64,000 nucleotides of DNA from Glaucostegus cemiculus (GCA_976551045.1 CDPCPM010000370.1:1240001-1304000), one strand, 5' to 3'; counted from the first letter of the stretch, positions 8,121-64,000 are shown. A program made the numbers and translations. The notes: generated from the letters alone by a model not told the origin.

Positions 8121-8424
8121 TCACTCAACGCGCAGTGATACAGCACTCCGTCTGACAGCTGCAATCTGCAGGGAAAATTTACCCTCATTTTGCAACTTAT
8201 GGAGAGATGCAGAAAGACAAGCAGAAATATATCGAGCCCTGAAACTTCTCCGGAGCAAGGAATGAGGATAAAGAAGCTGAAACCAATGTTCTCGTTCCAA
8301 CGGTACAATTATAATGAATATATGGTATTAGTGGTCCAGAAGCTGTAATTAATAGTCGCCAAGTCTCCTTAAATCCGCCTCACGTTATCCAATTCATTTG
8401 AGACCAATTCTACGGAATCTACAC
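8121..8424 (-). pseudogene. TCR alpha/delta-type V pseudogene (inverted)
   Basis: Minus strand: acceptor AG at 8426-8425, then ...GDLATINYSFWTTNTIYSL*LYRW... and ...RLQLSDGVLYHCALSD. First Cys and Trp lost, stops present. Decayed RSS: CATGGCG (8120-8114), 23 bp, ACAGAAATG (8090-8082). Confidence 0.75.
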
Positions 8425-10882: not shown

Positions 10883-11287
10883 ATGCGCCATTATTTTGTG
10901 AAATATCTCCTCCATACTCTCACCTACAGTATGGTTCAGTCTGAAATTTAGGTTTATTTTCTCCCTCTCCTTAACGTGTTGCAGGTCTAGTCCATGCAGA
11001 TTCCGTGACCCAAGAGGAAGCCGCAATGAGTCGGACAGAGCGTGAAGAGGTTACTTTATCTTGCACTTATGCCAAAGAACGTTATTTCTTATACTGGTAC
11101 CGCCTGTACCCTGTGGATGGCCTGCGTTTGCTGTTCGGATGTACACTGATGGGGGTGATGAAATTCAGGCTGATTTCACACGAGACCGGTTTTCTCACGC
11201 AGTCCACCAGTCGGAGAAAAAGTACCGTTTGACTATCTCTGATCTGCGGTTGTCTGACACGGCGGTGTATTACTGTGCAGTGCGTGT
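10883..11287 (+). pseudogene. TCR alpha/delta-type V segment with a 1-nt frameshift (leader 10883-10928, V exon 10985-11287)
   Basis: Leader MRHYFVKYLLHTLTY with donor GTATGG and acceptor GCAG. Reads DSVTQEEAAMSRTEREEVTLSCTYAKERYFLYWYRLYP, shifts frame near 11113, then GWPAFAVRMY...YRLTISDLRLSDTAVYYCAVR. Confidence 0.9.
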
Positions 11288-11326
11288 CACAGTGCCTGGA
11301 ACGGTGTGTAGACTCGTACAATAACT
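11288..11326 (+). promoter_or_regulatory. 23-spacer recombination signal sequence
   Basis: CACAGTG (consensus) + 23 bp + ACAATAACT. Confidence 0.92.
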
Positions 11327-13930: not shown

Positions 13931-14274
13931 ATTTCTTTCCACGAACACGGCCTCAAACTATATTTTAAATAGGATTTGTCAATATTGCATCAAAATGCAT
14001 CTGACCAGCCCACTGTTGTTTACGAAATTTTTCAGGTAATGCACATTTTTGGATGTGGTTGATTGAGAAGCAGCCCAATAACATCGCGTATCATTGTTGA
14101 AGCTCAATCTCTATTTCCTGCTGGCACATACTCGTTCCTGGTGCTGTCGCTCCTGGAATAAGCAAACAGTGTTTCAAACAGAAAACGCTATTGATGGTCA
14201 ACGACTTTATACAGGGAAAAATGTTGAACTTAAGCTGCTAATCCCGATGCAACACACTGTGGGACACTGTCTTT

Positions 14275-14396
14275 TATGTTTCTGTCGTGGATGTGAAGGA
14301 CCCGAGGACGGCCGACACAGCCATCTATTATTGTATCAGAATAACAGTCAAGGGTTCACTATGTTGCAATCAATGAACTCCCCGTTGACAAATCAG
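14275..14396 (+). pseudogene. Relic of an IgH VH(-D) 3' end with decayed RSS inside the TCR V array
   Basis: Encodes VDVKDPRTADTAIYYCIRITVKG (compare [22 protein letters not shown] at 51.05 kb). Then CACTATG (14357-14363) + 24 bp + ACAAATCAG. The 3' flank resembles that of the 51.1-kb VH. Confidence 0.75.
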
Positions 14397-21479: not shown

Positions 21480-21917
21480 ATGCACTCCTTCTGTTCATTG
21501 CTGATCGTACTGGGGCTACTGCCTGGTGAGTTTGTATACAAATTATGAATGTGTGTCCTGAGAGTCACAGTATTTCCTGCACTGTTTGAACTCTAAATGC
21601 CTTGTTGCAGGAGCGAGTAGTGAAGATTCAGTTTCACAGGATACGCCCGAATTAACGGTTGAAGACGGAAAGACCATAACACTGAACTGCACCTACTCCA
21701 CATCGGATGCCTTTCCCTACCTCTTCTGGTACATGCAGTGTCTTGGGGAAGCTCCGGCATATTTATTGAAGAGATACGGTAAGGACGGGCAGGATCGGTC
21801 TCCAGATGTCCCTTCCCGATTCTCTGCGGATTTTAACCCGGATAAGAAAACGGTTCCATTGACAATCTCCAGGACCCTTGTCTCCGACACTGCTGTCTAT
21901 CACTGCGCTCTGAGACC
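21480..21917 (+). CDS. TRAV: TCR alpha/delta V segment, open frame (leader 21480-21525, V exon 21611-21917)
   Basis: Leader MHSFCSLLIVLGLLP with donor GTGAGT and acceptor TTGCAG. EDSVSQDTPELTVEDGKTITLNCTYSTSDAFPYLFWYMQCLGEAPAYLLKR...SRFSADFNPDKKTVPLTISRTLVSDTAVYHCALRP. Alpha versus delta use cannot be resolved here. Confidence 0.93.
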
Positions 21918-21956
21918 CACACTATAGCAGGTGTGCAGTCAGTCCATACCAAAACC
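21918..21956 (+). promoter_or_regulatory. 23-spacer RSS
   Basis: CACACTA + 23 bp + ACCAAAACC. Confidence 0.85.
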
Positions 21957-24160: not shown

Positions 24161-24680
24161 ATGTTCGCTGTTCGTTCATTGCTCATAGCGACGATTGTCT
24201 TCACCGGTGAGTTCACAAGCTGTCAATACTACTCCTCACAATTTTATTGGATGTGAAATATGAACGGTTAGCGCATCGGAACTCGGAAAGGCAATGACAA
24301 ACGGTTAGTTTATGTGATAGAAGCATTGTGAAATAACATTGTGAAATAACATTGTGAATAACGGCTGTTTCAGGACACTGTCGTGGAGATTCCATTTCAC
24401 AGACTCCGTCCGCAACCACACTGAGCGAAGGGGAAGATGTCCTATTGCACTGTAATTATACAGCAGCAGGTGCTACGAATCTGGATTTGTTCTGGTACCG
24501 TCAATATCGCAGCGGGGCCCTGGAGTTTCTGGTCCAGAAAAGCAGGTTCAACGAGAAGAAGGCGACGAATGCAGGGGAAAGATTCTCAGTCACCCTCCAT
24601 CTTTCGAATGGAACCGTTCCTCTGTCTGTGTCTGAAACCCATCTGGGAGACTCAGCGGTGTATTACTGCGCCCTGAGAGC
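24161..24680 (+). CDS. TRAV: TCR alpha/delta V segment, open frame (leader 24161-24206, V exon 24374-24680)
   Basis: Leader MFAVRSLLIATIVFT with donor GTGAGT and acceptor TTTCAG. GDSISQTPSATTLSEGEDVLLHCNYTAAGATNLDLFWYRQYRSGALEFLVQK...ERFSVTLHLSNGTVPLSVSETHLGDSAVYYCALR. Canonical C, W and C are present. Confidence 0.95.
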
Positions 24681-24719
24681 CACAGAGATACGAACCAGGG
24701 TTAGACTTGTACAAAATCT
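24681..24719 (+). promoter_or_regulatory. 23-spacer RSS
   Basis: CACAGAG + 23 bp + ACAAAATCT. Confidence 0.9.
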
Positions 24720-27700
24720 CTCCCCAATGCCAGCTGCAGTGTAAAGGATAGGGAGGTTTTCAGTGTGGGGACCGCCGCGTTTCCTCTCAGTGCGCGGCTG
24801 TATCACAAAGTGCGCCCCCTCGGGGTTGTTTCTTTCTGCAGAAATGAGATCCAATTTAAAACTCACCAACCGTCATAGTTCGCTTTATTGTCCACCCAGG
24901 CCCCGTCTCACTTGCTGTCTGTGCTAATACGTGGAGTAAATAGCGATGTGTCATTGGTACAGTTCATCTGCACCGATTACCCTGTCCGGGCAATGCTGAC
25001 GGACCGAGACTGCAGCTCCTATTCCGCGATGCATAAACATAAAAGCTAAAAAGCAAAATAAGAAAAATTGAGATTGGACTACCGGGAATAAATAAAAGAA
25101 ATCAAAGTTATAGAGCAAAATCGGCGGGACTTAATTATCAGCAGCGTCGTGAAGAGGAGACACAGATTCTAGTGCACCGATCAGAATATCCTGAGAATTT
25201 ACGTGTTCCAGATTAAACGGGGTACTGTATGCATCAGAGCAAACTTGCAGAGTGGAACTGGACAGTCCGTGAGTGAACGGCTCCACTGCGGAAGTCTCCG
25301 TGAAATGGGGTTTTCAACTGCTCTTCGATTGGCCAAATTAAGTTATTATTTCATTTGTTTTTCATTTGTAAAGGCCCGCTTCAGTATCTTAACTGCATTG
25401 GTCCGTTTTTTCTTTTCTTTGTTGCTGCACGCTGTTGTGGATTGCGCCAAATCTGCTGACAGAGGATGCTGTTTCGAAAAGGTGGTCTTTGCGATAATTG
25501 GATCGGAGACGATGAGCATCGTGGGAGGTGTGTGCCGCTGCTCAGCCTGAAGCAGAGCTGCGGGGAGAAAACGGTCGACGGTTCGTAAAGAGCAATTTGA
25601 TAGGCTGGCTGCTCTCGTTCATTGTGCACGCAACTGGCACCTCAGCGACGGAACAAATAAACGCCGTAAATACAGGGATTTTTGTGCGCATGTTCTAAAA
25701 ATGTCTACCGACTGATACCTGGACCACGTCGTTGTTTATATATACTTAATACTCTTTACTTTGGTAATATTTTTATGAATAAAACATGATTATAAGATGT
25801 GCGTCAATGGATATGACTGGAAATGCGTCATTGATGATACACTCCTTTGAAATAAATTTGCTCTCTGCTGTCTATTTTAACAGGCATTGAAATTATTGTT
25901 CTTACGGATACTGGTCTTTGTACCCGTAACCCCGTGGAGGCTGCCGGGTGTGCTTCTCTATCATTCAACAGATGGATTTGGAGGTGCAGTTTAGTGTGAT
26001 GTTACTTTTTTCTGTGAACGTCATTTCGGTGACCGACTGATCCACTGCGTATTGGAGAACACGAAAAAAACATATTAGTTACCATGATGAGCGCAATTGA
26101 CCGGATTATCATCATAGTGTGATATTGTGGTTACAGAGATAAATGTAAGCCTGGTATTTTAATGAGAAGAAAACCCTGACCGAGAAGTGACATAATCATG
26201 AGGAGCGGCGCTGGGGGATTCTTCATGATGCACCTAATTCGGTAAATTTGAAGACAGTCGGTGAAAAATTAAGGACGCCTCTCCTGCAGCGCCCCGTGGA
26301 CCCAACCAATCACAAGCCGTGACAGTCTTTAACAAGGCTCCAATCATACAGGTCAGGAAATATGCACAGAACATAAGCAGTAAACGTGAGATTAGGGCAA
26401 GACGGCCACGGAAGTCAAATTTCATCAGGTCGGCGTCTGTTTGAAGGGGTGGGAACACCGCAGCGCAGCGCCTCCCAGCGGAGTGCGGAGCTGGCAGTTG
26501 TGAACTAGAAGACTGTTACCAGAGTTTGCTCACAGAGTCAGTGACTGTGACTCGAAATATTGGAGCGAAACGGAGCGACTGCACCGCAATGGAGTTAGTA
26601 ACGGTATTTAAACGGACCTGAACGAGATCTGTAGCAGACAATAGAAACGCAGTTTGAATTAAAAGATCGGGTACAATTCAACCGCCTCAAGTCCATGAAA
26701 ATTCGCCTTTCATTGAAGCGGTATAATAATCTGGCATTTCTCTGAATAAATTAGTTGTTTATTGAAGGGATTCTAGGAGAGATTTTGAGACGGCAGGCCG
26801 TTGCAGTACACGACGACGGCACTGAGGTGCAAGAAGCAGTTACGGCAATAAAAATAAGACCTGTTCCACCAGATGACAGCAAAATACCAGTAATTGCTTT
26901 ACCTGAGACTTCCACTGATTCTGTCTCCGCAGATGCTGTTTGACCCTCTTAATGTTTCCAGATTTATCAAAAAAATCTGTCTCCGCAAAACTGAAAATTA
27001 AGCTCTCCTTTTCTACTCAGATGGCGAGTAAGCGAAGTGAAGAGTCAGCTGGAGGATCACACCCTGGTAACCATGGGAACAAACTCGTCGTCTCTCGTCT
27101 ATGAGGATGTCTCATTTCTGGCAGTTTCCCATTCATAGGACCAATTACCGGATGAATTATCTGAAATAAGTACGCGTTTATTTCTGCGGTCGGGAGGTAG
27201 ATCAAACTACCAAATCCAGGCAGAACTGCACCTGATTTCTAGTTGGGTTTATGCGGGATGTGACCCAGCGCCCCTAAAGTCAGCGCTGTCCACGCCCCGT
27301 CACTGATGACTCGATAATCTCAAACTGGTCTCGTTAGGAACAGTAACAATGCAGTTCCTTGCACTGTCTGCGTGGTGGGTGATATTCATCACCAATAAGG
27401 AAGGAAACCGTTTTAAATTTCCATTGTGCTGTCAGGCGAACTTTATCGGGAATGCAGTGATAACGTGGAACATAGTATCAGATATAGCAATGGAGGGAAA
27501 TAGTTATGATTTAAGTGAAACTTTTGTTGTTTCAAGGAGAAAAGAATAGGGTCACAAACTGATAAGATGAGGTAAAGAAGGACATTGAAAGCTTGAGTCG
27601 GATTGACGCAAAGACAATTCCGTTCTCCATGACGAATTCACGGTAATTCTGTGGAACATTCGATGCGCGCTGTCCCTTCCACTAAGTTTAGTTTGAACGT

Positions 27701-27739
27701 TAATTAATTATTGTTTACCTTTCTTTACCCCCATTCCAG

Positions 27740-28035
27740 GTCTGACTGATGCCAATTCCGAGACTCAGTGGAAGTTCGCGCACCAAAGGGCAGAATGGCA
27801 GGACATTACTTTATCCTGTGCGAGTAATGCTGATTATTTATTCTTGTACCCTCAGTACCCAGGCGGGCTTCCCGAGTTTGCTGTCCAGAGACTCATTCAC
27901 GGCGGCTCAGAACTTCAGGTATATGTCGCTAATGACTGGTTATCTGATGTAATCCAGGGGTCTGAGAAGAAGCATCGATTGACGACCCATGGTTTGCGGA
28001 AGTCTGACCCAGCCGGGTGTTGCTGCGTTGAGTAA
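27740..28035 (+). pseudogene. TCR V pseudogene, paralog of the 10985-11287 segment
   Basis: Acceptor TTCCAG. DITLSCASNADYLFLYPQYPGGLPEFAVQR...SEKKHRLTTHGLRKSDPAGCCCVE*. Conserved Trp lost, YYC changed to CCC, heptamer destroyed, nonamer remnant ACAGTAACT at 28064-28072. Confidence 0.85.
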
Positions 28036-30081: not shown

Positions 30082-30120
30082 GGTTTCTGATCGGGTATGC
30101 TGTATTTCTTCTGTACCGTG
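30082..30120 (-). promoter_or_regulatory. 23-spacer RSS (inverted V)
   Basis: Minus strand CACGGTA + 23 bp + TCAGAAACC. Confidence 0.8.
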
Positions 30121-30601
30121 GAGTTCGTGGCACAGAGGTACGCAGCAGAGTCTAAGATCATTTCCTTGTGGATTGTTCGCTCCGTGATTTTAGTCTCTTT
30201 TTCGAAAGTAGAATAAATTCGGTCAGTGAGGTCTCTATGTTTCTTTAGGTTCTCTCCCACAAAATGAAGCAGGTCCTCTGGAGGTTCGCCATGGCGCTGT
30301 CTGTACCAGAAAACACACAGGCTTGAACGGGTTGTTTTCAAGGTGCAGTTCAGTGTGATATTATTTTCTTCTTCAGAGGTCATTTCAGCTAACGACTGTT
30401 CCACTGAGTTTTGGAGGTACAAATCTGACGGGAAAAAAAGAATGATTATTCACCACCACTACTTTATTAAAACTAAGCATCGTCATTCTATGACAGTAAT
30501 GTCAGGGTTATAGACATCCAACAAAGTCTGTCATTTTACGGGAATGAATTTTTACCGGTAAGTGATACAATGATGAGCAGTCGCACTTGGTATTTCAGCA
30601 T
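30121..30601 (-). CDS. TRAV: TCR alpha/delta V segment, inverted, open but divergent frame (leader 30601-30556, V exon 30424-30121)
   Basis: Leader MLKYQVRLLIIVSLT with donor GTAAAA and acceptor CGTCAG. QNSVEQSLAEMTSEEENNITLNCTLKTTRSSLCVFWYRQRHGEPPEDLL...DRIYSTFEKETKITERTIHKEMILDSAAYLCATN. Confidence 0.85.
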
Positions 30602-49095: not shown

Positions 49096-50326
49096 CTCAA
49101 TCTGCATCTCTGTGATTCATTCTATATATGTAGCTATATGTACCCGTGACTATGGATTGCTGAACACATTCACCAATTAGTGCCGTTATCAGCTGTGTGC
49201 CTAAGCCTTGACTATACCTTTTCTTTCATACTGAGATTTGTGAGCCTTTCGACACAGGTGCACAATGAAGAAAAAATATAAAAGAGATGCCTTGGGGATT
49301 GGTTTGAATTGGAACCTGATTGCAATTTTGACAGTTTGACCTGGCTTCCATCAGTTTAACAGTCAGGAGGAGGATCTTATCTTCTCGCCAAAGTCCATGT
49401 GTTTTCTGCAACTGATGTTCGATTCTTTAACCGAGATCTCACCAGTCACTGATTGCTGCCAATTGTCTTGTTGAATGGATTGACATTTTTGAGGGGAATC
49501 TTCGACTTTTAATTATTTATCTCGTGGCATTTATTCAGCCGTATTTCCACATGGATCAAACAAATGAAATTATTCAGCAGACATAAACAAACTTGAGTTA
49601 TTCCATACAAAATAGTTACGTAAAATATAACAGCATGAAAGCGATCCGCATGCCATCTTATTAATTCTGAAAGAAACTCGCTCAGAGGGATCGTACAGGG
49701 AAAACCCAAGGACGAACAGATCCAAAAGTCACAAATATATGGCATAAAAGGATCAGTAAGATAGCAGTAATCTTCTTTGGAACGGAATGGAAGCGGCAAC
49801 ATTTATTTTATTTCCATTGGAGTCTGCGTGTCCCATGCACAGCAAGGGTTTATGCATCACCGACCGTCTCCCACAGGCCACACTTTTATTATACTCTGGA
49901 CATATTTCTTCAAAATTCATTCCAAGCTTTTGGCTGCGGTATTAGGGAAATAGTCGGGCATTTATCTGTTTGAGGACCTGATTATCTGTAATATCGGTCG
50001 GTGTCCTGGTGGATAATAGGAATGAGTATGGATCTGATGTCACCCCGGAGATCGCGCAGTGGGTCCTGGCTCACTACCTTAATGTAAGTCTATCTGCAGA
50101 AGTAAACAAGTATCAAGCTATAACTCGATCCCGCTGGTGATGTGGAGAGGGCAGCTTAGCTCCGCCAGCCTCCCCATCAATCGAATGGTTCCACCCACAA
50201 CCGCGTCCTCCTCTCTTCTCCCGGGTATTTATATGTCGTACACAGTCTCCACAATCCAACTTTCCTCAGTTGGTTTGTAACAAAGTTTAGCGCAGGATTA
50301 ATTCCATCATGATTCCCAGAAGGATA

Positions 50327-50369
50327 ATGTCGGCGGCTTCACTGAGCCTGTTTCTGGCTTTTTTACCTC
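50327..50369 (+). CDS. IGHV: IgH V leader exon
   Basis: MSAASLSLFLAFLP, phase-1 donor GTGAGT at 50370. An in-frame upstream ATG lies at 50309. The intron contains an N gap (50419-50701). Confidence 0.88.
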
Positions 50370-50793
50370 GTGAGTCATGTTGCAGGACATGTTTTTTGAC
50401 GCTCACTGACTACCTCAGNNNNNNNNNNNNNNNNNNNNNNNNNNNNNNNNNNNNNNNNNNNNNNNNNNNNNNNNNNNNNNNNNNNNNNNNNNNNNNNNNN
50501 NNNNNNNNNNNNNNNNNNNNNNNNNNNNNNNNNNNNNNNNNNNNNNNNNNNNNNNNNNNNNNNNNNNNNNNNNNNNNNNNNNNNNNNNNNNNNNNNNNNN
50601 NNNNNNNNNNNNNNNNNNNNNNNNNNNNNNNNNNNNNNNNNNNNNNNNNNNNNNNNNNNNNNNNNNNNNNNNNNNNNNNNNNNNNNNNNNNNNNNNNNNN
50701 NGACTCTTCCTTTTTATCTCAGAGCATAGAATCAGGACTCATTGTCCCAAGGTTTGTCCTCAGTCTTCTTCTCCTTTTTTACTTAATTCGCAG

Positions 50794-51107
50794 ATGTCCA
50801 TTCATACGTCCTGTTGACGCAGCCCACGACAGAGACCTCCAGACCCGGGGGGTTCCTCAGACTGACCTGTAAAACCAGCGGTTTCGATCTTGGCAACGAC
50901 TGGATGCACTGGGTCCGTCAGGTGCCCAAACAGGGGCTGCAGTGGCTGCTTGAATACAAAAATCCATCAAGCAAAACCTTCGCATCGGGCATCGAGAGCA
51001 AATTTACTCCGTCCAAAGACACCCGAAACGGGATCTTTGCCTTAGATATGAAGAATCTGAGGACGGAAGATACGGCCATTTATTACTGTGCGAGAGATAC
51101 GACGGGT
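50794..51107 (+). CDS. IGHV: IgM-type VH exon with 3' extension (probable germline-joined V-D)
   Basis: Acceptor [58 protein letters not shown]...[35 protein letters not shown]. There are 18 nt between the Cys codon and the heptamer. Confidence 0.95.
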
Positions 51108-51145
51108 CACTGTGCTGCAACCAGCGTGATTCCCGAACAAAAACA
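51108..51145 (+). promoter_or_regulatory. 22-spacer RSS 3' of VH(-D)
   Basis: CACTGTG + 22 bp + ACAAAAACA. Confidence 0.88.
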
Positions 51146-51444
51146 TACACAGCATATTTCCTTCTGCTTGAAGTTACCAACAAGACAGGAGAGGCCGATG
51201 AAGGCAAACTCATATTATAGTTCTGCATCTAAACTTACACAGAGCGAAAAAAATGTAACTGGCTGCAGTATAGTTTCTGTCAATTTTACAGGTGCTACAG
51301 GCGAACATAACTGAGCTTTATTTCTGGCAATGAGGAGCACACGGTGACATAACCCACGAGTGCACACTTTCAGCGGTGTCTGAATCAGTGTTTTTAAAGC
51401 CAAAAAAAAGTCGTTCTCGGCATTCTTCAGCAGACCATCTGCGG

Positions 51445-51472
51445 AGATTTTGTCATGGCTTGTCTCGCTGTG
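51445..51472 (-). promoter_or_regulatory. 12-spacer RSS 5' of the (D)J segment
   Basis: Plus strand AGATTTTGT + 12 bp (CATGGCTTGTCT) + CGCTGTG, which on the minus strand reads CACAGCG-12-ACAAAATCT. Confidence 0.85.
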
Positions 51473-51532
51473 TTTACCGGGAGGCCTCCCTTGAAAACTG
51501 GGGAGGAGGCACCATGTTAACGGTGACTGACG
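51473..51532 (+). CDS. IGHJ: IgH J segment with 5' extension (probable germline-joined D-J)
   Basis: 60 nt reading (tt)YREASLENWGGGTMLTVTD, with the WGxGT motif. Phase-1 donor GTGAG at 51533. Not present in the ORF track. Confidence 0.9.
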
Positions 51533-54500
51533 GTGAGAAACATCCTTGATTCACTGACTGATCAGTTGTGATTTTACTGGGTGGCTCATGTTATTTTGGC
51601 AAATAATTCCACTACGTATGTTTTGCATTCTGTAGAATTCTGGGTGATGCTCTTCTGAAAAATGTGATGTGATACTGCTGCAGGGAAATCATGGAATTGA
51701 ATTTTGCCCATGCTGATTCCAATTGATGCATTGACCTTCAGGTTTTGTGATTTAAGTTGTATTTGATCAAGTATGTTTGCGCCCTGATTGCTTTCAGTGC
51801 ATTGGTGTTTTGAAATTGTTTAAAATGTATACAATGATGATCCTGGGAAATAACCAACTGCCGTTCGTGATCCAAAGCAAAACTTTGTATCAATCTGCCC
51901 AGGGAATACAACAATGCAAGAACAGGTAAATTTTGAGTTCAACATAAGCATGTTTCCGAAGTGTGTGTTTTAATTGGTGTAATCGCAGAGCAATAACGAA
52001 CATTTTATTTTAGATTGGACCCGTAACAGTCCAACGTTTACATACTATGAGAATTATACTGATTACAAGTGATAAATAGTGTCTTTGACCAATATCGCAG
52101 TTGTGCTCCAAATTCGCAATCCGTGAAACGTGATCCATGGAATCAGAATCCAGTGGTCTTTATGGTATTCAGGGTTAATTTAACACAGTTTGCTTATTGA
52201 AAGCAAGGTTTGGTAGAATTTTATTGGAGATTATTCTGCAACTAATTCTGGTGAATTAGTTTCGAAAAATAATGTTATGAGATACAGCCCATCAGTGACA
52301 TAGTTTAGTGATTGTCTCTGTGTGACAACATGTCACGATATTTCAATGACCGGCCCTTCTAAAAGCTTAATCCAAGTGGCCGTGAATGTTGCGGCTTTAC
52401 TCAGTGTGGGGTCAGATCATCTGACAGAAAGCACGTCAGTAAAATGACTATGTTTTTAACTAGTTACTGGAAATAAGAAACATAAATAGTAAATTCTACA
52501 AACACGCAGCGTATCCGACACATGTGCGTGAAGAGCAATAGAGATTAATTTTCAGCTTGAGATCCTTCGTCAGGAATAGTCTTCGAAGGGTCATCGACCT
52601 GACCTGAAATTTTTACTTAGTCTCTCTTTCCGCAGATGTTGCCTGACATGCTGAACGTTTCCTGCAAACTGATGTTTCAGACACGCAAGTAAACTGTTTG
52701 GGGCAATATATTGGCTAGTTTTCGGTAGATTTCAGAATTCGAATGAAATTTACCGAAGTGACGTTTTAAATTCCAAACTTGGCTCCCGATGAAATATACG
52801 AGATATTAAATATTGAAATATAATATCTCACAATTGAAATAATCATCCATTTGTGATGGTAATAATTAATGGATTGGCAGTTTGAAGAATAGTTATGGGA
52901 ATAAAATGGCAAGTTATTTAATAATAAAGTACGAACTGCAAATGTTGTGCGTTCGGTAGTTTCCAGTTGATAACTGCAAATACACAGCAGTTTAATCACT
53001 TCTCAGCCTTAAATCATACCTTCATTCTCCTTGAATATAATTTTCTGTTCAGTAACAAATCCAATATCATATGATTAAGGGCAATTCAAAGCTGCTTAAA
53101 AATTAATTGGGATCTCAACAATTTTTAATTTGATTTTTAATAAATTCAGCGAAGGTACACAGTCTGTTGTAATATTTCATTCGAAGGGTTAATGTGATCC
53201 TTATATTATTCCCTTCTGCCGGTTTCCAACAGTTGTGCTGCTGATACAGAATTTACTCAGGTATTATGTTGAGCGTATATTTTTAAATGCTCACAAATTC
53301 AATCTCCCCTGTGCATTGCCCAGTGTGAATGAAATGCTTCTTTCAGTTCGAACTGATCATTACAAACATTGCATATCATAATTATCAGGATATAACTAAG
53401 TTTTGTTTTTCATTTTTGTGAATGATAGGAGTCAAGAGAGTCAAATATTCAGTGTACTGTTTATCATCAAATAACGGTGCCTCCACACAAATTCCATTTA
53501 TTTTCTGAGTCCGCTTGGTCTTATTGACAAATTTGTGGCCATGCCCAGGAGCTAATTTATGATAGTTTATTTGTAGCTTCTCACAATCTGTCGTCCTGGG
53601 TCCAATATTGGGAAAACCACTGTTTTGCAGTCCATCGTGGTTAGTGCAATTTTACGCTGCCAAACTCTGAACTATTGCAATGTCAGAACCTTAATACATT
53701 ATCAGGAATATGCTCCGAGTATGAGGAAATTAAATTAAATTGTAAATATCTGGAGTTGGGAGGACAGGTAGAAGTTTCAAGCTATATTAACAGGTTTTAT
53801 TTAAATATATAATGCTCCAAAATAGTCTTTCATTCATGCAATTGTTGATGATTTTAAAATGTGATACACTCCCCCAATTCATATTCTAAAATTTGTCGGC
53901 CAGTCAAAAACTGGTGTAAAATTTCTACTCCTCAGAGTACAGTTGATCAATATGAATATTAATTCCCATTGAAAATATGTTAAACCAAACTGGTTTGACA
54001 CTATCCTTCTTATCGCATTGGTTTACACTATGTGAAATATCAACGGCTGGATAAAAGCTTTCACTTTATCTAAATTGAGAGATCCTCAGTTGAGAGATCA
54101 GCGTATTTCATTGTTCTACCCAGCTGTACAAAGCATTGCTGTTGATCTCAGCGACTTTACCCCGGATTTTCTGTGACGATATAAAATCTTCCGCTTAATC
54201 ACCAATTTAAAACAACCGACATCGTGCCTCTGAATTGGCATCACTGCGCCAAATGCCATGGGATGTTCTTAAGTGAGTTTAAAAAATTCAAAGGAATATG
54301 ATTGTGTGGGTCAGCACACTCAAAGAACGTAAAGTGAAATTGTTTGGTGTTCAATATTGTTTTACCCAATGGGATTGCAATTTTCATGGAAATAATCTGC
54401 AGATTCAAATAATTGGGCAGTAAATAGATACCAGAAGTTCTGAAAGTGACAGATCCCACAGATCTGTTTTCGATTTAGGCACCGTTTTTGCGTGTCTGTT

Positions 54501-55870
54501 TCCACGCCACTTATCGCCTGCTTAGAATCACATATTTTACTGCCTGGATGTTAATCTCACATTTCCCTTTCTTGCATTTCGGTGTCATTTGGCCTCGCAA
54601 GTGCGTTCATTTTTATCTACGCGTTAAGGGCGACTGCTTTACTCAAACCGATTAGATGCTTTTGGAAGACAGCTGGTGGCATTCAGATTGAGCAAGTCCA
54701 TGGAAGCACAGTCGGAGTTCAGAACAAGATTAATACAATGGATAAAAAATGCTCCGGCTGAATCTGGGTGGCAGGTTGTGAGTTGGTGCGGGGTTGCGGG
54801 GGAGGGGGTGGTGGTGGTGAAGGCAGACATTTCGCTTACGGCACACATCAGCTGGATGTTCATTTAACATTCCTGTCCTATTTTCATCGATCAGCTTGTC
54901 CAACAGGGAGTACGGCGAGCTCTGTCCGAGCCAACAAACAGTTTGAATTGCGAGACACATTTATTCAGACACGGAAGGACAACGACATGTTTTCTGGCAC
55001 TTCTTCTGATTGCCTTATGAAACACAACATGACAGTATGGCGGTGGAGGGGCGTGATCATGTTTAAGTAAATATTAATTGTAGCCACAGGGCATTTCAGG
55101 TAACTGATTGTTCTTGGGAAGTTGACGACTTAAGGCTGGAGGCCCAGCGATGTATTTATCACCGCGGACACTGTAAGGCTTTCAGTTTAACTTGCAGCTG
55201 GTGGCGTTCCAAGGATATTGTAATCAATGTAATTCTCAGCGGAAGAATTCCCGGAATCACCTGCTGTTGAGGATTTCATGTCATGTTGCTGCAGTGTACA
55301 GTACAGATAACCCACTGCAGAAACACGTCGCGTACCTTTGATTGATAAAGAGCAAAGCGTGGTTGGATGGGCGAAAATACATCGAACTATATTGTTCTCT
55401 TACTCGTGGTCGATGTGTTCTGCTTTATCCGCATAGAATGGGAAACATTCCGACAGAAAGCTCGATTGTGCCGTGTGGATTGCGGGTCGCTTTTTGCCGC
55501 GCCAAGAGGTGTAGCTAAAAGAACACTCCCCATTTTGGCTTTGTGTCTGCGCAGTTTATTTTGTTCTGTGAATTTTGTAAAGTTTTGCTGACAGAGAGCT
55601 CGGGGTTCACACGGCGCCTGGAATTCAAGGATAGATTTTTTTTTTAATCTTCTGGAAGTGCTTATTGCAATAATTTTCAACTGGATGTTGCAGAAAGAAA
55701 TTCGCGCTGATGAGACCATGTTGTGTCGATATGCTATTATATGGTTTTGACAAATTCATGAACCAGGCAAATGCAAAAAAAAGATTCATATATAATGAAT
55801 GTTTGATGGGATTGAATATGGATGAGCAAGAATAGAATGTTGATTTTTTCATGTGACCATTCTCTTCCAG

Positions 55871-56167
55871 CGGCACCGTCTGTCCCCTCCCTCTACGCTC
55901 TCCTCTCCTGTGACCAACCCAGTCAGGCCGGGTCGATCACCTTCGGTTGTTTGGCGATGGACTACTCTCCGACGGGCATCAGTGTTTCCTGGAAGAAAGA
56001 TAAACTGCCGGTCACCACCGGACTGAAGAGCTACCCCGCAGTGTTCAACGAGAAGGGAACTTACACCCGCAGCAGCCAGTTAACCATTACTGAGTCAGAG
56101 GCAGGGAACAGCACCATATACTGCGTGGTTCAGTATCGGGATGCAGTCATGGAGGTCAAAATGCCCG
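55871..56167 (+). CDS. IGHM: IgM constant exon Cmu1
   Basis: Acceptor [21 protein letters not shown]...[10 protein letters not shown]...SWKKD...[29 protein letters not shown]...IYC...MP. Donor GTTAGT. Confidence 0.95.
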
Positions 56168-57142
56168 GTTAGTGTTGGGATAAACAGCGGGGGCGAGCAT
56201 TGTGAAGTTTACCATTTAGAAAAGAACGTGGTCAAATTCCACAGAACATTGGTCATACTGGACTTAATATGTTATCAATTTTCCATTATCCTTGTCACAT
56301 TGATCGTGCAGCGCGTTGCGCAAAACAACATAAACCTTTTAGCGAAGTACCAACACTTCAAGTTCACATATAACTGGTAAAATGGAGGGCACACGCCTGG
56401 AGACGAAATGGCATATAAAACACTGCTCACAGTTAAATCTTCAATGTAACGACCAGTGGTTTATGATCTCAGTAGAAAATAAACACATAAACTGTGAGGA
56501 CCTTTTCCCGTAACTGAGGGATGAGAGCGACCCAGAAATATCGAGGAATTGATTTTTCCTCTTGCGAGATGGGAATTAGTGCCTTTAATTATAAGCATTT
56601 CACGGGTTTGTAAAATAGTAGAGGTATTTGTCCGGGTAGAGAGATGAAAAACAGTGAGAACGAAGTGAATATGGTTGCAGACACGTCCATGTTAATGTTG
56701 TAGAAGCTTATCTATCTTGAGGTTAATTAGCTTGTCGTATTCACCAATACATTGTGCCGTTGAAGCCACGTTATTACGAGGCTTAGGTGGTCTTTAGAAT
56801 CATAGAAACGGAGACGTTCAGCGCAAAAATAACCCATTCGTCTTTTCACGTCCATGCCGACAATGCAGTAATTATCTACACTGCCCATTTTACTAGCATT
56901 TCGTTAATTGTCTTTATAAGTCCCTGTTTTAATCGGATTTTGCGAAGTCAACGGCGGTGAACGAAGTTTAAGGCAGTATTTATTAAGCCTCAAAGAAAAG
57001 AAGTTACATTGGCGGAAAGGAATATCCCACTTAATCTTCTTCTTGTCTGCATTGTGCATTCAGTGCCAGTAAATCGCATTCTTCATTTATGATCGATTGC
57101 ATTTTAAGAACAATTCCAATGCCGTTTTTTTTTTCCTGCAAG

Positions 57143-57454
57143 ATCGAACAGTGTTTCATCCCACTATCGTGATCACTGTGAATGGCATTGATGAAATAAG
57201 AATGAGTAGAAAAGTGACAGCCGTGTGTTCGATCACCGAGTTCCGTCCCGCGAAACTGACCGCGACGTGGTTAAGGAATGGGCAGCCCTTGAATTCAGGC
57301 GTCGTCACTTCCCCTGCCTTTGAGGTGAACGGGAATTTCTCGGCGACCAGCTGGGTCACATTCCCTGCCGCAGAATGGTTCAGTGGTTCGGTATTTACCT
57401 GCCAGGTCACCCATAGAAATAACACACAAAGCCGAAACATCAGCATCTCTCAAG
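57143..57454 (+). CDS. IGHM: IgM constant exon Cmu2
   Basis: Polypyrimidine tract and CAAG acceptor. DRTVFHPTI...VCSITEFRP...WLRNGQ...EVNGNFSATS...EWFSGSVFTCQVTH...SRNISISQ. Donor GTAAGA. Confidence 0.95.
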
Positions 57455-57649
57455 GTAAGAGATCATCGCTGGAAAGTCCTAAATCTCAGTGTGATTGCGG
57501 ACAACAGTCGAAGTTCTACGGTCACTAACATTGGGACAGGGCAGACATAGTTGCTCCTTCCATCTTTGATGTTTCTCTCAGGTCAGAGCTGGAATGTAGT
57601 CACATACGATTTTGTGCTACAAACCAGGGATACATTGCCGGGAAAGAAT

Positions 57650-57730
57650 TTTATTATTTGTCATATTGCACGGTAACAGGCTCATCCGGCCCTGCTAATC
57701 CGCGTCTCCCATTTTAAACCCATGTTAACC
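57650..57730 (-). mobile_element. SINE 3' fragment in the Cmu2-Cmu3 intron
   Basis: GGTAACAGGC...CGGCCC...CCCATTTTAAACCC matches the 3' part of the SINE at 62.4 kb. Confidence 0.65.
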
Positions 57731-57820
57731 TGCGCATGCTTATTAAAACCTTGTTTGGTGAATCTTGTGTTACCATTTCTGCTGGTGAATCTTGTCTTGA
57801 TTTTCATTTCTGTGTGACAG

Positions 57821-58126
57821 ATCCGAACTGTTACGAAGAACAGATTACAATTCAGCCACCAAGACTGGAACAGGTCTTACTAGAGGCGTCTGTGACCTTA
57901 ACCTGCATCGTATCTCATGCACCTTATGGCGTCCAAGTGGCCTGGAGACAAGGAGAGAAGCAGTTGAAATCAGAGGTTACCTTCCAGCCAGGAGAGGCCC
58001 GCGACAGCGTGATCAGCAACCTGAAAATCTCGACGCAAGCCTGGCTGAGTGGGGATGAATTCCATTGCGTGGTGAGCCACATGGAAATGCCAACTCCGAA
58101 AAGGGCTTCGATCCGCAAGTACGATG
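57821..58126 (+). CDS. IGHM: IgM constant exon Cmu3
   Basis: Acceptor [47 protein letters not shown]...[32 protein letters not shown]. Donor GTATGG. Confidence 0.95.
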
Positions 58127-59451
58127 GTATGGTGGGATTCGTGGGAAGGAAAATTGCTCTTTTCTTTATTGTTACGAAATATATATGTATAAGAAAGTCC
58201 ATAATGTTGGGCAAAATTTGTGGAAAGAATCTCAGTGCTTAATGTTTCATGAAATGCAATCTTCAGGACTGAGAGAGAGAAAGCACGCGTGAAGCTGCAT
58301 AGTAGCTAAAGGACATATGGAATGGACAAAGGGAATATGGCTAACAGGATGTGATATGGGTTACCATGGGGTGAAGTTATCGAAGATACACAGTCGAAAA
58401 TTTTAATGAGAACAATCAGCGTATGTAAACGCAAAGCGGGAGGCGTAATGTGTTGCAAATAACAGTAATGTTAGGTACACTCAGTAATCAGGTTGTGTTA
58501 ATGGAGGGATAGTAACTGAGCTAGTGTCGCGTCTAGCAGAAGTGGGCATGTCTGAAACAGACAGAGGGAGCGATTTACATGAAAGCCTGAAAAATAAACT
58601 GCAGGTTTCCTGATATCTGAAAGAAGTTCCTTGAAGGTGGATAATTCGCTATTGAATCCAAGAATCTGCAACATACGCTGACGGAGGACGGAGTGTTGTT
58701 TCGTATGCTTATGTTGGGCCTCGTTATAGAAGTGTAGGATGACACTTACAGACAGATTTGAGCAGAAAGATTTTGCACTTTTTCTCAGCATTCTCTGAAT
58801 ACCCAGTTGTTTCCTTTTCTTTTGTCTATTGCACCCCCGCCAGCTCTGCAACTGAACACATTGGTCTATTTTTTCTTCCATATCTCAGGAAGATTTGCGA
58901 TCTGATACGTGAAATCCCTCCTTTTTGCGCACACGCTGTCTGACATGCTGAGTGTTTCCTGCAATTTCAATTATTTTATTTTGCATTTCTAGAAGATGCA
59001 TGCTCATTTTCGCTTCTTTATCATTAATTCCTTTTCCGAACTGGAACTCAAAGATAATAGTTTCCCTAATTGAATCATCGCGACCATGACAAAATATAAA
59101 TAAGTGGTCGTTGATACGTGAATGAGGTAGATCGTCCATGCCAGAAATGCATTTAGAGATATACTATAATATTGGCATGAGATCCTCATGATGTAGCAAC
59201 ACTGGCATTGGTAGTGGGGTGGAAATGACTTGAACCTGTACTGTAAGTTTCATCTAATATTACAGAAAACCTTCCAGCTTCTCCAGAAAATAGCGCAAAC
59301 TCCTCTATCCAGTTCCGCAAAAGAGCGAACGGTCACAGAAGTCAGATTTAATATAATTAACCTTTAGCTCACATTCCCTTCATGCCTCAATCTATCAGTT
59401 TCTCGTCTCTAATTCCTCAATGTAATGAATGCTCTCGCAATCGCTCCGCAG

Positions 59452-59843
59452 ATCCACATCCGCGGGAACCATCCGTATCCGTCCACCTTCCGCCGACAGA
59501 TGAAGTCTCCGCTCAGAAGTCTATAACTCTCACCTGCTTTGTGAGAGGTTTCTCCCCTCGCCAAATCTTCGTTAAATGGACGGTCAATCACAAGCCAGTG
59601 GATTCGCGCAACTACAAGAACACCGAGGTGGTGGCGGAGAAGGACAACAGAACCTTCTTCATGTACAGTGTGTTAACCGTTGGGTCGGAGCAGTGGAATA
59701 GCGGTGCGTCTGTCTCCTGTGTAGTTGGACACGAAACCCTCCCCATGAAGACCATCACCAGAACGGTCAATCGGTCTAGCGGTAAACCCAGTTTTGTCAA
59801 CGTTTCCCTTATACTGATGGATGCTGCCAATACTTGTCAATGA
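59452..59843 (+). CDS. IGHM: IgM constant exon Cmu4 plus secretory tailpiece
   Basis: Acceptor [20 protein letters not shown]...[17 protein letters not shown]...[10 protein letters not shown]...[22 protein letters not shown]. Internal donor G|GTAAAC at 59782 for the membrane form. Confidence 0.96.
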
Positions 59844-59869
59844 GAATCTCTTGACTCTCGAGAGATACA

Positions 59870-59885
59870 AATAAATACAAATAAA
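59870..59885 (+). terminator. Secretory-form poly(A) signals (two AATAAA)
   Basis: AATAAA at 59870 and 59880, ~27 nt after the stop. Confidence 0.75.
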
Positions 59886-62196
59886 TACTGTGTTTCTTCC
59901 AATGTTCACCTGACCCTGAGAACACTTCGCTAATTGTTTGCTAATTTTACTTAGGGACGGCTGTACTTGTGAGGGCGTTGTGGTCTGTCAAACCAGTGCT
60001 CCTGTATCAAATTCAATAGGGGTTTGGAGATAATTTATAGCTCCATCGTTGTCGCGCTCCCGGACACACTTGAGAGCCATTTTTTTTGTTGTTGTTGTGC
60101 TAATTCGGATCCAATGTTCTGGACTTCCGTTTTCTATTTTTTTTTACTGTTCTCCATTCATTCGGAATGGAACAAGAGCAGGATCTCAGCCACTGAGCCT
60201 TGTGCAGAGTTCCACGTCAGACAGCAGTCTGTAACTCAAACTTCCCTACGAGCGGTCAAGCTAAGAGCTACTGCCCAGACAGTTTTACACACATTTCCTC
60301 AGCAAGGCGTTGACATTCTCATCGATACTCTGAAATGCGATTGAAACACACATTTCTGTGATCGCAAGAAATATTATCTGAACACGGATTATAATCAGGG
60401 CCATCAAACAGACCCCGAAATCTTAAAACGAAACCTTTGCTAAATGGCTGATTCAAACCTCTCACAATCACGCAAGGGTACGCACAAAACGACAGGGAGA
60501 GGACTGCTGTTTCATATGGACGCCAATAAAACGGACACATGAACACCAGTCATCAGCACGTAGACATTGACACATAGCAGACACATGTAATCACAAGGGC
60601 AAGAATGTCACAGCCGCTCGCTCACACGCAAACACAAACACACGGAAAGGCCTGCACTCCCAAATGCTTTGTTCGTACATTTATGAATAAATAATGGACA
60701 GAAAGCTGTTCGTATGCTTCTTGCAGGTGTGACTGCCGTTTTCAGACTTTTGGTAGTTAGGAGAAGAGAAGGTTTCCTCCAATCTTGTGATATCAATAGA
60801 TTTCCACGAAAAGATCTCCGCAAGGTAGATAACCAGGATACATGGTCACAACTGAGACCAAAATGTCGAGAGATCGCTTCTCAGAGGGTTGTAAAACTCC
60901 TGCGTTCTCTGATACAGATTTCTCCAGTCCTTCAATGTAATGTACTCCAGAATGTGACAGAATGTTCAGGCGACTGAGCGGGAACGGATATGAGAGTAAA
61001 AGATGAACATGAAGTTAGTCCCAAATATCAGATGGGGAGATATATTTAATGGCGAGCCCTGGCTCTCGCACCCACACCTACATAAAGCATATGAATATTT
61101 CAAGCATATACTAAACCAAAGAAAATATCGAGCTGATTATACAACTATTCACTTACATACAAAAAATAAGTAAACATAAATCCATGAAACTGCAGCAACA
61201 AATTCCAACATTCAAACATTTGTTGACACATTTTCTGACACATCAATGGACACGCATACAAAAATTCGCATAACTGTGTATGAACAGGTATGTTTGCCAG
61301 GTCATTCGTTTATTCACAAACTAATGTTGACGAGCGCTCGAGAAGATGCTTGACAAACTCAGACGCACATGTCCTAAATCGTATAGATGCACAACACCAA
61401 CCTGTAAATTGCAAATACGAGCACACGGACATACGCAGACATGGACACATAGACACATTTACAAACCAACAACCCTGCAGGGAAATGAAGGAAGTAATAA
61501 ACATCAATTTAAACATTTGAAGAAAACTTCGCGTCGACGCAGTGGACGGCACAGGAAGAACAGACTGAATGTGAGAACTCATAATCAATCACACGATAGA
61601 AAGGACTAAATCTCAATGAACTAGATTTAGGCAATGCATGTACACCGCACATTTCTTGAACAGGCAAAGTCTCTAAAATATATTTATAATGCAGTGTTAT
61701 GGAGGACTGCAATATATCCCTTTATTCTGACCCTGCAAGTATCAAGCAACAAGGTTCTTTGGGGTTAATGAATGCAAGTTAATGGCATCAAACATGCTGC
61801 ATCCAGTAAATCCTCTCGATGAACATCATTTAACATTTCCAGATACGTTTTAGACAAGCATAGCAAAAATAACCTAAATCAATTGGTACATTGCTACGCC
61901 TAACAGATCGTTACATTCTTGGACGGGGTATATAGACTGAACAACGTATACCGGAAAGATATACATGTAACTATCACCGACAGTAAATATGAACCAGTGA
62001 GGTGGGCCGCTGATGTTAGAACAGGCATTGCTTGCTGAGAACTATATTTTGAGGAAGCTGACCATAACACAAAGGGTCACTGAAAATTAAGTTCACAGAT
62101 AAAATTGGATGTTCACGGAAAATTAACAAAACATGAAAGAAAGGATTCCTGGGCTGGATATCAATGAGAACATGTTTCCTTTTCTGATTTCTTTAG

Positions 62197-62324
62197 ATTT
62201 ACCTGACAGCCACAAGATTGAAAACTATGAAGGAGACAGAGAGAATATCTGGACAATGGCTTCCACATTCATCATCCTGTTCTTCCTGAGCATTTCCTAC
62301 GGCGCTGCCTTAACTCTAGTGAAG
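62197..62324 (+). CDS. IGHM: IgM transmembrane exon TM1
   Basis: Acceptor TTTAG. DLPDSHKIENYEGDRENIWTMASTFIILFFLSISYGAALTLVK with the conserved antigen-receptor TM motif. Donor GTGAGT. Confidence 0.95.
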
Positions 62325-62384
62325 GTGAGTTCATTTCACTCACCATTCCACCTGATTGAAGTCAGTGGACAAATATCGAACATT

Positions 62385-62643
62385 TTTAAATTAATTAATT
62401 TTTAATTATTTACAGCATGGTAACAGGCCCTTTCGGCCCTCCGAGTCCACGCCGCCCATTTTAAACCCCGAAATTCATCTACCCGTAGGTCTTTCAGAAT
62501 GTGGGAGGAAACCGGAGCACCCAGAGGAAACCCACGCAGACACGGGAGAACGTACAAACTCCTTACAGAGAGCGACGGGAATCGAACCCCGATCGCTGGC
62601 GCTGTAACAGCGTCGCGCTAACCGCTACGCTATCGTGCCGCCC
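62385..62643 (-). mobile_element. Full-length tRNA-derived V-SINE with CR1-type 3' end, in the TM1-TM2 intron
   Basis: Minus strand GGGCGGCACGATAGCGTAGCGGTTAGCGC (A box), GGTTCGATTCCC (B box), core GGGTTTCCTCTGGGTGCTCCGGTTTCCTCCCACA, then GGCCGAAAGGGCCTGTTACCATGCTGT and an AT-rich tail. Confidence 0.9.
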
Positions 62644-62743
62644 TACTTTTATCCATTCTAATTTTCAATTTTATCCATTGAAAACATGTATTGAAGTTTT
62701 CCATCACTAATCGACTTATATATTCTCTATCCTTCTTTCATAG

Positions 62744-62752
62744 GTCAAGTGA
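62744..62752 (+). CDS. IGHM: IgM TM2 exon (VK*), giving cytoplasmic tail KVK
   Basis: Acceptor TTTCATAG followed by GTC AAG TGA. Candidate poly(A) signal AATAAA at 63477. Confidence 0.9.
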   Translation, partial: VK

Positions 62753-64000
62753 TGGTTGAACCAATGAAGCCAGAGATTTTTCCGATTGTTCCTTGGACAC
62801 CTCAGTTGAAATACATTTAAAAAAATCCCGTTCAGGAACTGTCATGAGTTGGATTTCAGTTCCTCATTCTGTATTGTTCATTATCAGAATTTTCTGCGGC
62901 CACATGTCTCACTAATTCGGCTGTGTTACTTTTAAATCCAGATGTCCTGAGTCAATTCGTCGATTTTTGTTGAATATTCCCAGTTTTTAAACCATGATCC
63001 TTCCCTGTCCTCTTCCCGGCATCCGATGTATTTCTGAAAATAGCTGCCAGAGCAATTTGTTCGCAAGGAGGCCGTTCTTCGTCATTTTCACTTTAAGATG
63101 CATTTAGGTCAGAGAATCCGTAATTAGTGGAATGGCTAAAATATATCTAATGGTCCAAGAACTATCTTGGGATTCTTCTCTTGAAGCCTTCTGCACAAGT
63201 TCCAATTCCACCTCACACAGCTCTTATATCTTCCCGCACTGTACTGTCTATCACGTTATTACATTTCCCGGAATGTAAATTATTCGCATATTCTTGTGTA
63301 AAATTTGTCCTTCTCCATATTCCCACCCTGCCCTGTTTCTTTGCTCTGTTGTGCTTTACAATTGCACAGAGTGCTAGCAGCTCAGACTGCCTGTTCTCAG
63401 GATGAAAAACAATAGTGATTAGCATTTTTTCTTATTTTTCAAACAATATCTACAAATTGTTCTGTGTGTAATAGTCAATAAAGCTGTATTTTCAAAGTCA
63501 CCAATTTGGCATTACATTCCTTTCTACTTACCGTACCCAAGTTGCTGCAATTTGACGATCACTGTGACATCTTTCCCCAGTTACAGTTTCCAACTTGTCT
63601 GCCTCTGCTTGCATCCATGTATCGCCGATTAGTTATACACAACGCCCTCTGGCGGCTCAACACACGGGAGTGACTTCTCTGCGCCATATTATTTCAAGTT
63701 GCAGGAATGAAATGGTGAGCAAGACACAGTTGTAAACTTTAATATTATTGCGGTCTGCAGAGTCAACTGGAATATTACGATGGATTTTCCATACCCACAT
63801 AGAATAAAATAACTCAATTATTGACAATACGTCCTTGTTTTGGAAAATAATATATTTCAGATCATCCAACTATCAGTATCCATGACAATGGGAGCACACA
63901 TAATATGTCTGGTATTGACGTACCACTACTCTTGCAAATACTTCAGAAAATCTCTCTAAAATGGGGCATGGGAATGAGAGGGAAGGATACTACGACTGAA

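Follow-up and report, generated by a model that had tools for sequence, protein, structure and literature searches.

The window analysed here is the whole stretch of 64,000 nucleotides from Glaucostegus cemiculus located at CDPCPM010000370.1:1240001-1304000, on a parent contig (C370) of 3.07 Mb of which 1.66 Mb was examined directly. [quoted passage not shown] Exon positions are given in window coordinates, and positions in kb of clusters, TRAC, TRDC, D-delta and lone VH segments refer to the contig. Outside the V–J interval the gene comprises the following features:

50226..50233, plus strand: TATA-like promoter box, some 100 bp ahead of the ATG of the leader and similarly placed in most paralogues
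50327..50369, plus strand: IgM leader exon with a phase 1 donor (splice sites, frame)
50794..51107, plus strand: VH exon, fused to a D1 remnant and ending YYCARDTTG (Pfam V-set, frame, type of recombination signal sequence, RSS)
55871..56167, plus strand: Cmu1 exon (Pfam C1-set, splice sites, frame)
57143..57454, plus strand: Cmu2 exon (Pfam C1-set, splice sites, frame)
57821..58126, plus strand: Cmu3 exon (Pfam C1-set, splice sites, frame)
59452..59843, plus strand: Cmu4 exon and secretory tail with penultimate Cys (PDB mu-chain matches); the membrane-form donor is internal, after 59781, and the secretory stop is at 59843
59870..59885, plus strand: two AATAAA signals of the secretory form, starting at 59870 and 59880
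62197..62324, plus strand: TM1 exon (splice sites, frame)
62744..62752, plus strand: TM2 exon, VK and stop (splice sites, frame)
63477..63482, plus strand: first AATAAA 3' of TM2, a candidate membrane-form signal read from the sequence; a further AATAAA starts at 63803

All exon ends carry AG/GT in matching phase, and the leader with VD, the path from J to the tail and the path from J to TM2 were stop-free on translation. The original prediction, according to which L, VH, J, Cmu1-4, the secretory tail, TM1 and TM2 are open with canonical phase-consistent splice sites and poly(A) signals exist for both forms, was thus confirmed, the signals after TM2 being candidates. Pfam assigned V-set to the V exon and C1-set to all four C exons, and the top PDB matches for Cmu4 with the tail were mu chains. 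Identity of the C region was 57% to a named Triakis IgM and 41–45% to chimaera heavy chains. The gene has the composition of an elasmobranch IgM minicluster: one L-V-(D)-J cassette with its own Cmu1-4, secretory tail Cys, TM1 and TM2, and a 12/23-compatible RSS pair. The protein search found named shark and chimaera IgM relatives, but a VH–C-delta chimera was absent among 11 longer matches and a near-identical protein among six matches of similar length. A TCR-like TGATGTCA motif upstream of the gene was dropped as a candidate element because it was not at a comparable place in most paralogues.

The V and J segments are separated by a gap of 365 bp, in which a forward 22-spacer RSS after V faces a reverse 12-spacer RSS before J:

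51108..51145, plus strand: 22-spacer RSS of the D1 3' type, CACTGTG / ACAAAAACA (spacer comparison with paralogues)
51445..51472, minus strand: 12-spacer RSS of the D2 5' type, CACAGCG / ACAAAATCT (spacer comparison with paralogues)
51473..51532, plus strand: D2 remnant fused to JH, open in the J frame, YREASLENWGGGTMLTVTD (frame, splice site)

A facing pair of a 22/23-RSS and a 12-RSS with at most three mismatches occurred in 0 of 2000 shuffles of the V–J interval; the 12-RSS before J has three mismatches to the consensus. Unjoined paralogues have a 23-spacer RSS after V (22 in two), 12/22 around D1, 12/12 around D2 and a 23-spacer RSS before J. The 22-spacer after V shared 13–18 of its 22 bases with the D1 3' spacers of eight clusters and 7–12 of 22 with the V spacers of the 13 clusters with unjoined V, and the 12-spacer before J had the same sequence as the spacer 5' of D2 in two paralogues. 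Since a D1-type RSS thus follows V and a D2-type RSS precedes J, V carries a fused D1 and J a fused D2, with one join left, and the RSS types place the cluster in the state VD1-D2J with a single rearrangement remaining. The earlier reading of the gene as VH and J is accordingly correct in that both are present and open, while J is also fused to D2, making the arrangement VD-DJ instead of plain V and J. The V-D1 and D2-J joins were likely inherited through the germ line.

The C exons gave pairwise dN/dS values (ratios of nonsynonymous to synonymous substitution rates) of 0.27–0.31 against five paralogues, and in a neutral simulation at the terminal branch length of 0.13, 20 of 5000 runs remained without a stop. 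These values bear on the explanation that the gene, though intact, yields no antibody, as with the horned shark's joined heavy-chain genes. For the latter, the available part of PMC2193156 reports that expression of germline-joined H genes was not detected, which counts against the present gene being expressed, and the mismatched 12-RSS points in the same direction. However, D1 of another open cluster uses the same nonamer, conservation of the promoter region with 14 paralogues is 64–74%, and a dN/dS of about 0.3 was found together with zero stops over a long terminal branch. Silence of the gene is considered improbable.

The TCR genes of the window all lie on the leader side of the IgM gene:

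10986..11326, plus strand: TCR alpha/delta V, frameshifted, with a 23-RSS (sequence, RSS)
21480..21956, plus strand: clean TCR alpha/delta V that has a leader, an open frame and a 23-RSS
24161..24719, plus strand: clean TCR alpha/delta V, likewise having a leader, an open frame and a 23-RSS
30082..30601, minus strand: the TCR V nearest to the IgM gene, having a leader, a frame that is open though divergent, and a weaker 23-RSS

A distance of 19.7 kb separates the IgM ATG from the leader ATG of the nearest TCR V (minus strand, about 30601), in agreement with the 20 kb given previously. The V gene at 24.4 kb had mostly TCR alpha chains as its top PDB matches. Decayed V-like fragments are scattered among these genes at 8200-8310 (minus), 14250-14340, 25930-26080 (minus) and 27700-28030.

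The same contig includes candidates for the TCR constant regions and the D-delta segments:

C exon at about 56 kb and TM at about 53.6 kb, minus strand: TRAC candidate (position, J arrays, transmembrane motif)
About 198 kb, TM at 196 kb, minus strand: TRDC candidate (position, J arrays, transmembrane motif), with one strong match in the genome
229.5 and 229.9 kb, minus strand: two D-delta segments with 12/23 RSSs

In addition, 93 J-alpha and nine J-delta with a 12-RSS were detected, all on the minus strand (of 105 J-type motifs, 102 were retained after filtering by RSS and position). The first D-delta segment is G-rich (GGGACTGGGGTACG) and in this resembles the conserved vertebrate TCR D. Of 590 candidates in the TCR V search of the assembly 150 matches were scored, and 149 of these are on C370 between 272 and 3009 kb. 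Past the last IgM cluster, 72 of 83 V-like segments were open with a 22/23-RSS and all 83 were on the minus strand (410 kb examined, in blocks picked as minus-rich); a hand count of the scored TCR V matches beyond 2.04 Mb gave 84 on the minus strand out of 118. The intervals between the IgM clusters contain TCR V genes, lone VH-like segments, and NAR-TCR-type V-D-J units followed by a V-delta. C370 thus holds the whole TCR alpha/delta locus, with the IgM clusters nested inside it. The original prediction had placed the IgM cluster next to a TCR alpha/delta V array and an intact B-cell receptor gene in one neighbourhood with T-cell V genes; the linkage holds, TRAC, TRDC and D-delta being found on the same contig, and the position was understated, as the cluster is inside the array, between the distal V genes and D-J-C.

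The NAR-TCR-type units, several in number, are at 1090-1236 kb and 1339-1399 kb on both strands. In these units a NAR-like V has a D and a J of its own and is followed after about 2.5 kb by a V-delta that carries an additional Cys (RSSs checked in four units). The three lone VH-like V segments at 1131.8, 1137.7 and 1191.1 kb have a 23-RSS, but neither a D signal nor a J signal is present within 3 kb of them. They are TAILV-like, TAILV being IgH-like (immunoglobulin heavy chain) V segments without a C region of their own that are used only with TCR delta.

The window includes two short N runs, the only ones in the 1.66 Mb examined, which would be the places for an assembly error to have created the adjacency. 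The second run falls within the IgM gene itself, with promoter and leader to its left and V to its right, all homologous to paralogues. To the right of the window's IgM cluster N-free sequence continues into another IgM cluster and TCR V genes, N-free sequence also connects the IgM cluster at 367-382 kb with TRDC and TRAC, and the same gene order is present in published shark and ray assemblies (PMC12227049). Because the gene spans the N run and the links to TCR V and TRDC are N-free, mis-scaffolding at the gap, named earlier as a possible refutation, is not the cause of the linkage; the probability left to it is negligible.

A Cmu4 search of the assembly yielded 540 candidates, of which 150 matches were scored. 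Seventeen of these were 73–100% identical, all on C370 at 370-2024 kb, and the next match was 40% identical and on another contig. All 17 Cmu4 exons found lie between the distal TCR V genes and the TCR D-J-C segments. Thirteen clusters are on the strand of TCR D-J-C and four are inverted, the window's cluster included. By the same RSS-spacer test seven of the 17 clusters (C370 367-2038 kb) are partly joined, each with its own junction, and none is fully joined. Judged from their RSS types, the partly joined clusters are:

381, 984 and 1480 kb: V-DD-J
430 kb: V-D-DJ
1945 kb: VD-D-J
743 kb and the window's cluster: VD-DJ

The clusters at 381 and 430 kb are sisters (support 100/100) and yet differently joined. 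In C-exon trees, for which the constrained groups were defined after viewing the first tree, the three V-DD-J clusters as a single clade were rejected (p-AU 7.8e-6), the grouping of the window's cluster with the VD-D-J cluster at 1945 kb was weakly rejected (p-AU 0.045), and the two VD-DJ clusters (at 743 kb and in the window) were neither recovered as a clade nor rejected as one (p-AU 0.22); the trees did not resolve the long-branched joined clusters. A single origin of the joins was rejected because the V-DD-J clade fails and the sister clusters differ in their join, so that joining occurred several times.

Frameshifts or deletions are present in at least three of the 17 clusters (1431, 1480 and 1530 kb). 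A second, unjoined IgM cluster at 1310.8-1325.8 kb stands tail-to-tail with the window's gene, 8 kb past TM2. The outermost cluster, at 2037 kb, has a very divergent V that is 42% identical to the window's V and resembles the lone VH-like segments, and in the otherwise open cluster at 1027.6 kb the D1 3' heptamer has lost its CAC, so that joining of its D1 to D2 may fail. Other contigs (C97, C117, C132, C628, C868, C900 and C50, C157, C436) carry heavy-chain C exons of IgW-like type (about 40% to Cmu4) and arrays of V and C exons resembling those of light chains, outside the TCR V array.

The joins could also be somatic, with the VD-DJ state a lymphocyte rearrangement captured by the assembler and the inherited gene unjoined. 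The four partial states of the contig (V-DD-J, V-D-DJ, VD-D-J, VD-DJ) are indeed those described as somatic in nurse shark thymocytes in the available part of PMC2435157. Clone-private joins would, however, rarely win the consensus at seven of 17 loci, the same contig has D-delta1, D-delta2 and the J arrays in unrearranged form, and nurse shark whole blood and heart DNA had no rearranged bands according to that part of the paper. Somatic capture is very unlikely.

Another alternative is that the cluster has been retained mainly as a pre-built VD donor, its 22-RSS joining the 12-RSS of D-delta1 by inversion to give an IgVH–TCR-delta chain. The D-delta1 12-RSS is a perfect consensus and better than the cluster's own, and VH-to-TCR-delta trans-rearrangements are called common in sharks (PMC12227049, citing others, in the available text). 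Against this role speak the selection acting on the TM exons and on each of the four Cmu exons, the position of the cluster, 1.06 Mb from D-delta1 and inverted, as opposed to its own partner RSS 338 bp away, and the presence of the lone VH-like segments without nearby D, J or C at 1132, 1138 and 1191 kb. The earlier suggestion that the VD 22-RSS could donate to TCR D/J 12-RSSs outside the window stands as far as 12/23 compatibility with D-delta1 is concerned, but the cluster is not special: every unjoined IgM cluster likewise offers a 22/23-type RSS at its V and D1 ends, some far closer to D-delta1, and another IgM V is about 150 kb from it in deletional orientation. Retention mainly as a donor appears scarcely probable, slightly more so than somatic capture.

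Taken from the sequence, the window's gene is with high probability an intact IgM minicluster in the VD1-D2J state, likely germline-joined and likely expressed, and one of 17 nested in the TCR alpha/delta V array. Several points weigh against this explanation. The contig is an assembly consensus, from the sequence of which the germline or somatic origin of the joins has to be judged, and in the nurse shark VD-DJ also occurs as a somatic intermediate, both in B cells and in thymocytes (PMC2435157, available part). The dN/dS values average the whole branch and are therefore compatible with recent silencing. The PDB matches of the TRDC candidate are only generic Ig constant domains, and the names TRAC and TRDC were assigned from position together with the J arrays and transmembrane motifs. 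Of the contig's 3.07 Mb, about 1.41 Mb is outside the sequence examined, and the assembly may lack further IgM clusters.

Under V(D)J rules RAG would make one cut-and-join in a B cell, between the D1-type 22-RSS and the D2-type 12-RSS, and the product V-D1-N-D2-J would have two fixed junctions and one variable. The rearranged VDDJ would be spliced to Cmu1-4 and then to the secretory tail or TM1/TM2, the exons and signals for which are present. The V-D1 and D2-J joins probably arose from RAG activity in ancestral germ cells, as proposed for other shark joined genes, and as a side activity the VD end could occasionally join D-delta via the 1.06-Mb inversion. Since the cluster has the distal TCR V genes on one side and D-delta/J-alpha on the other, its deletion or inversion in the course of T-cell rearrangement is predicted: by orientation, a minus-strand distal V joining D-delta or J-alpha would delete the whole IgM array on that chromosome, and use of a plus-strand V would invert it.

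In nurse shark thymocytes most IgH was partly rearranged, with 60% loss of the germline band in the thymus and no transcripts, while the light chain NS5 was unrearranged; the authors invoked permissive chromatin, the positions of the loci being then unknown (PMC2435157, available part). A broader proposal, put forward tentatively and with somewhat more doubt than confidence, is that the entire IgM repertoire is a passenger in the TCR alpha/delta V array. Use of a distal same-strand V would excise all 17 clusters, and opening of the V array would expose them to RAG, which would explain the partial, transcript-free IgH joins in shark thymocytes with a rearranging light-chain isotype untouched; the same accessibility in germ cells would have repeatedly fixed thymocyte-like joins (seven of 17 clusters, four states). 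If this is true, T cells often excise or disturb their own IgM genes while assembling the TCR. The nesting predicts IgM copy loss in mature T cells, and the puzzle of 2008, IgH rearrangement in shark thymocytes, becomes a testable position effect. Seven differently pre-joined clusters in one genome also offer material for studying germline RAG activity.

Taken alone, the gene is an unremarkable shark IgM cluster of a known kind, and the value of the analysis lies in the contig-level picture, an RSS-level map in which every IgM cluster found sits between TCR V and TCR D-J-C segments. A literature search, with most subscription papers outside its coverage, gave only somatic examples of V-DD-J and V-D-DJ and no statement of complete IgM nesting, of IgM array excision by deletional TCR joins, of a bystander explanation for shark thymocyte IgH rearrangement, of seven of 17 clusters with differing partial joins, or of germline V-DD-J. 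Deiss 2019 reportedly places IgH segments within the nurse shark TCR delta locus, and parts of the nesting argument may be contained there or in Ott 2021.

The linkage has been described as the elasmobranch antigen receptor complex (AgRC) by Flajnik et al. [quoted passage not shown] The AgRC linkage group also takes in UrIg2 and PSMB5. In Table S1 of PMC12227049, TCR V of the stingray starts at 21.0 Mb and TCR delta C is at 26.15 Mb, with IgM models in the interval at 21.7 and 24.1-24.4 Mb; the IgM models of the white shark are placed among TCR V. The present contig agrees in having TRAC, TRDC, D and J in cis with IgM miniclusters and TCR V exons with NAR-TCR V units between the IgH clusters. 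The difference is that PMC12227049 used NCBI gene models and says 'linked near', whereas here RSS-level anatomy is resolved on one contig with 17 of 17 Cmu4 inside the V array.

With TAILV and IgVH–TCR-delta trans-rearrangement (via PMC12227049, available text) the window's gene has in common that an IgH V carrying a 22/23-type RSS lies in cis with D-delta. The interpretation as a TAILV was rejected as its V has its own J and Cmu1-4 and belongs to a complete Cmu cluster; the lone VH-like segments of the contig fit TAILV better. Also the IgM1gj type of nurse shark, a germline-joined IgM, was rejected: IgM1gj is fully VDJ-joined and without Cmu2, whereas the window's gene keeps one rearrangement and four C domains, Cmu2 included. 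The nurse shark IgM miniloci of Malecek et al. 2008 (PMC2435157, available part) are similar VH-D1-D2-JH-Cmu cassettes, in which about 400 bp separates the segments, and they number about 15 compared with 17 here, but the available part of PMC5192425 gives no canonical germline-joined IgM for that species, as against seven of 17 partly joined here.

Closest in their joins are the germline-joined IgH genes of sharks and skates, partly joined clusters being listed in the available parts of PMC5192425 (which names VD-DJ), PMC4279169 and PMC6795676, and RAG joining in germ cells being argued for shark joined genes in that of PMC2193156. They have in common with the window's cluster the partial pre-joining, the loss of the inner RSSs and the one rearrangement left (PMC5192425, PMC4279169, PMC2193156). 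The reviews, as far as their available text extends, name VD-J, VD-DJ, VDD and VDJ, to which this contig would add V-DD-J in three clusters and V-D-DJ in one.

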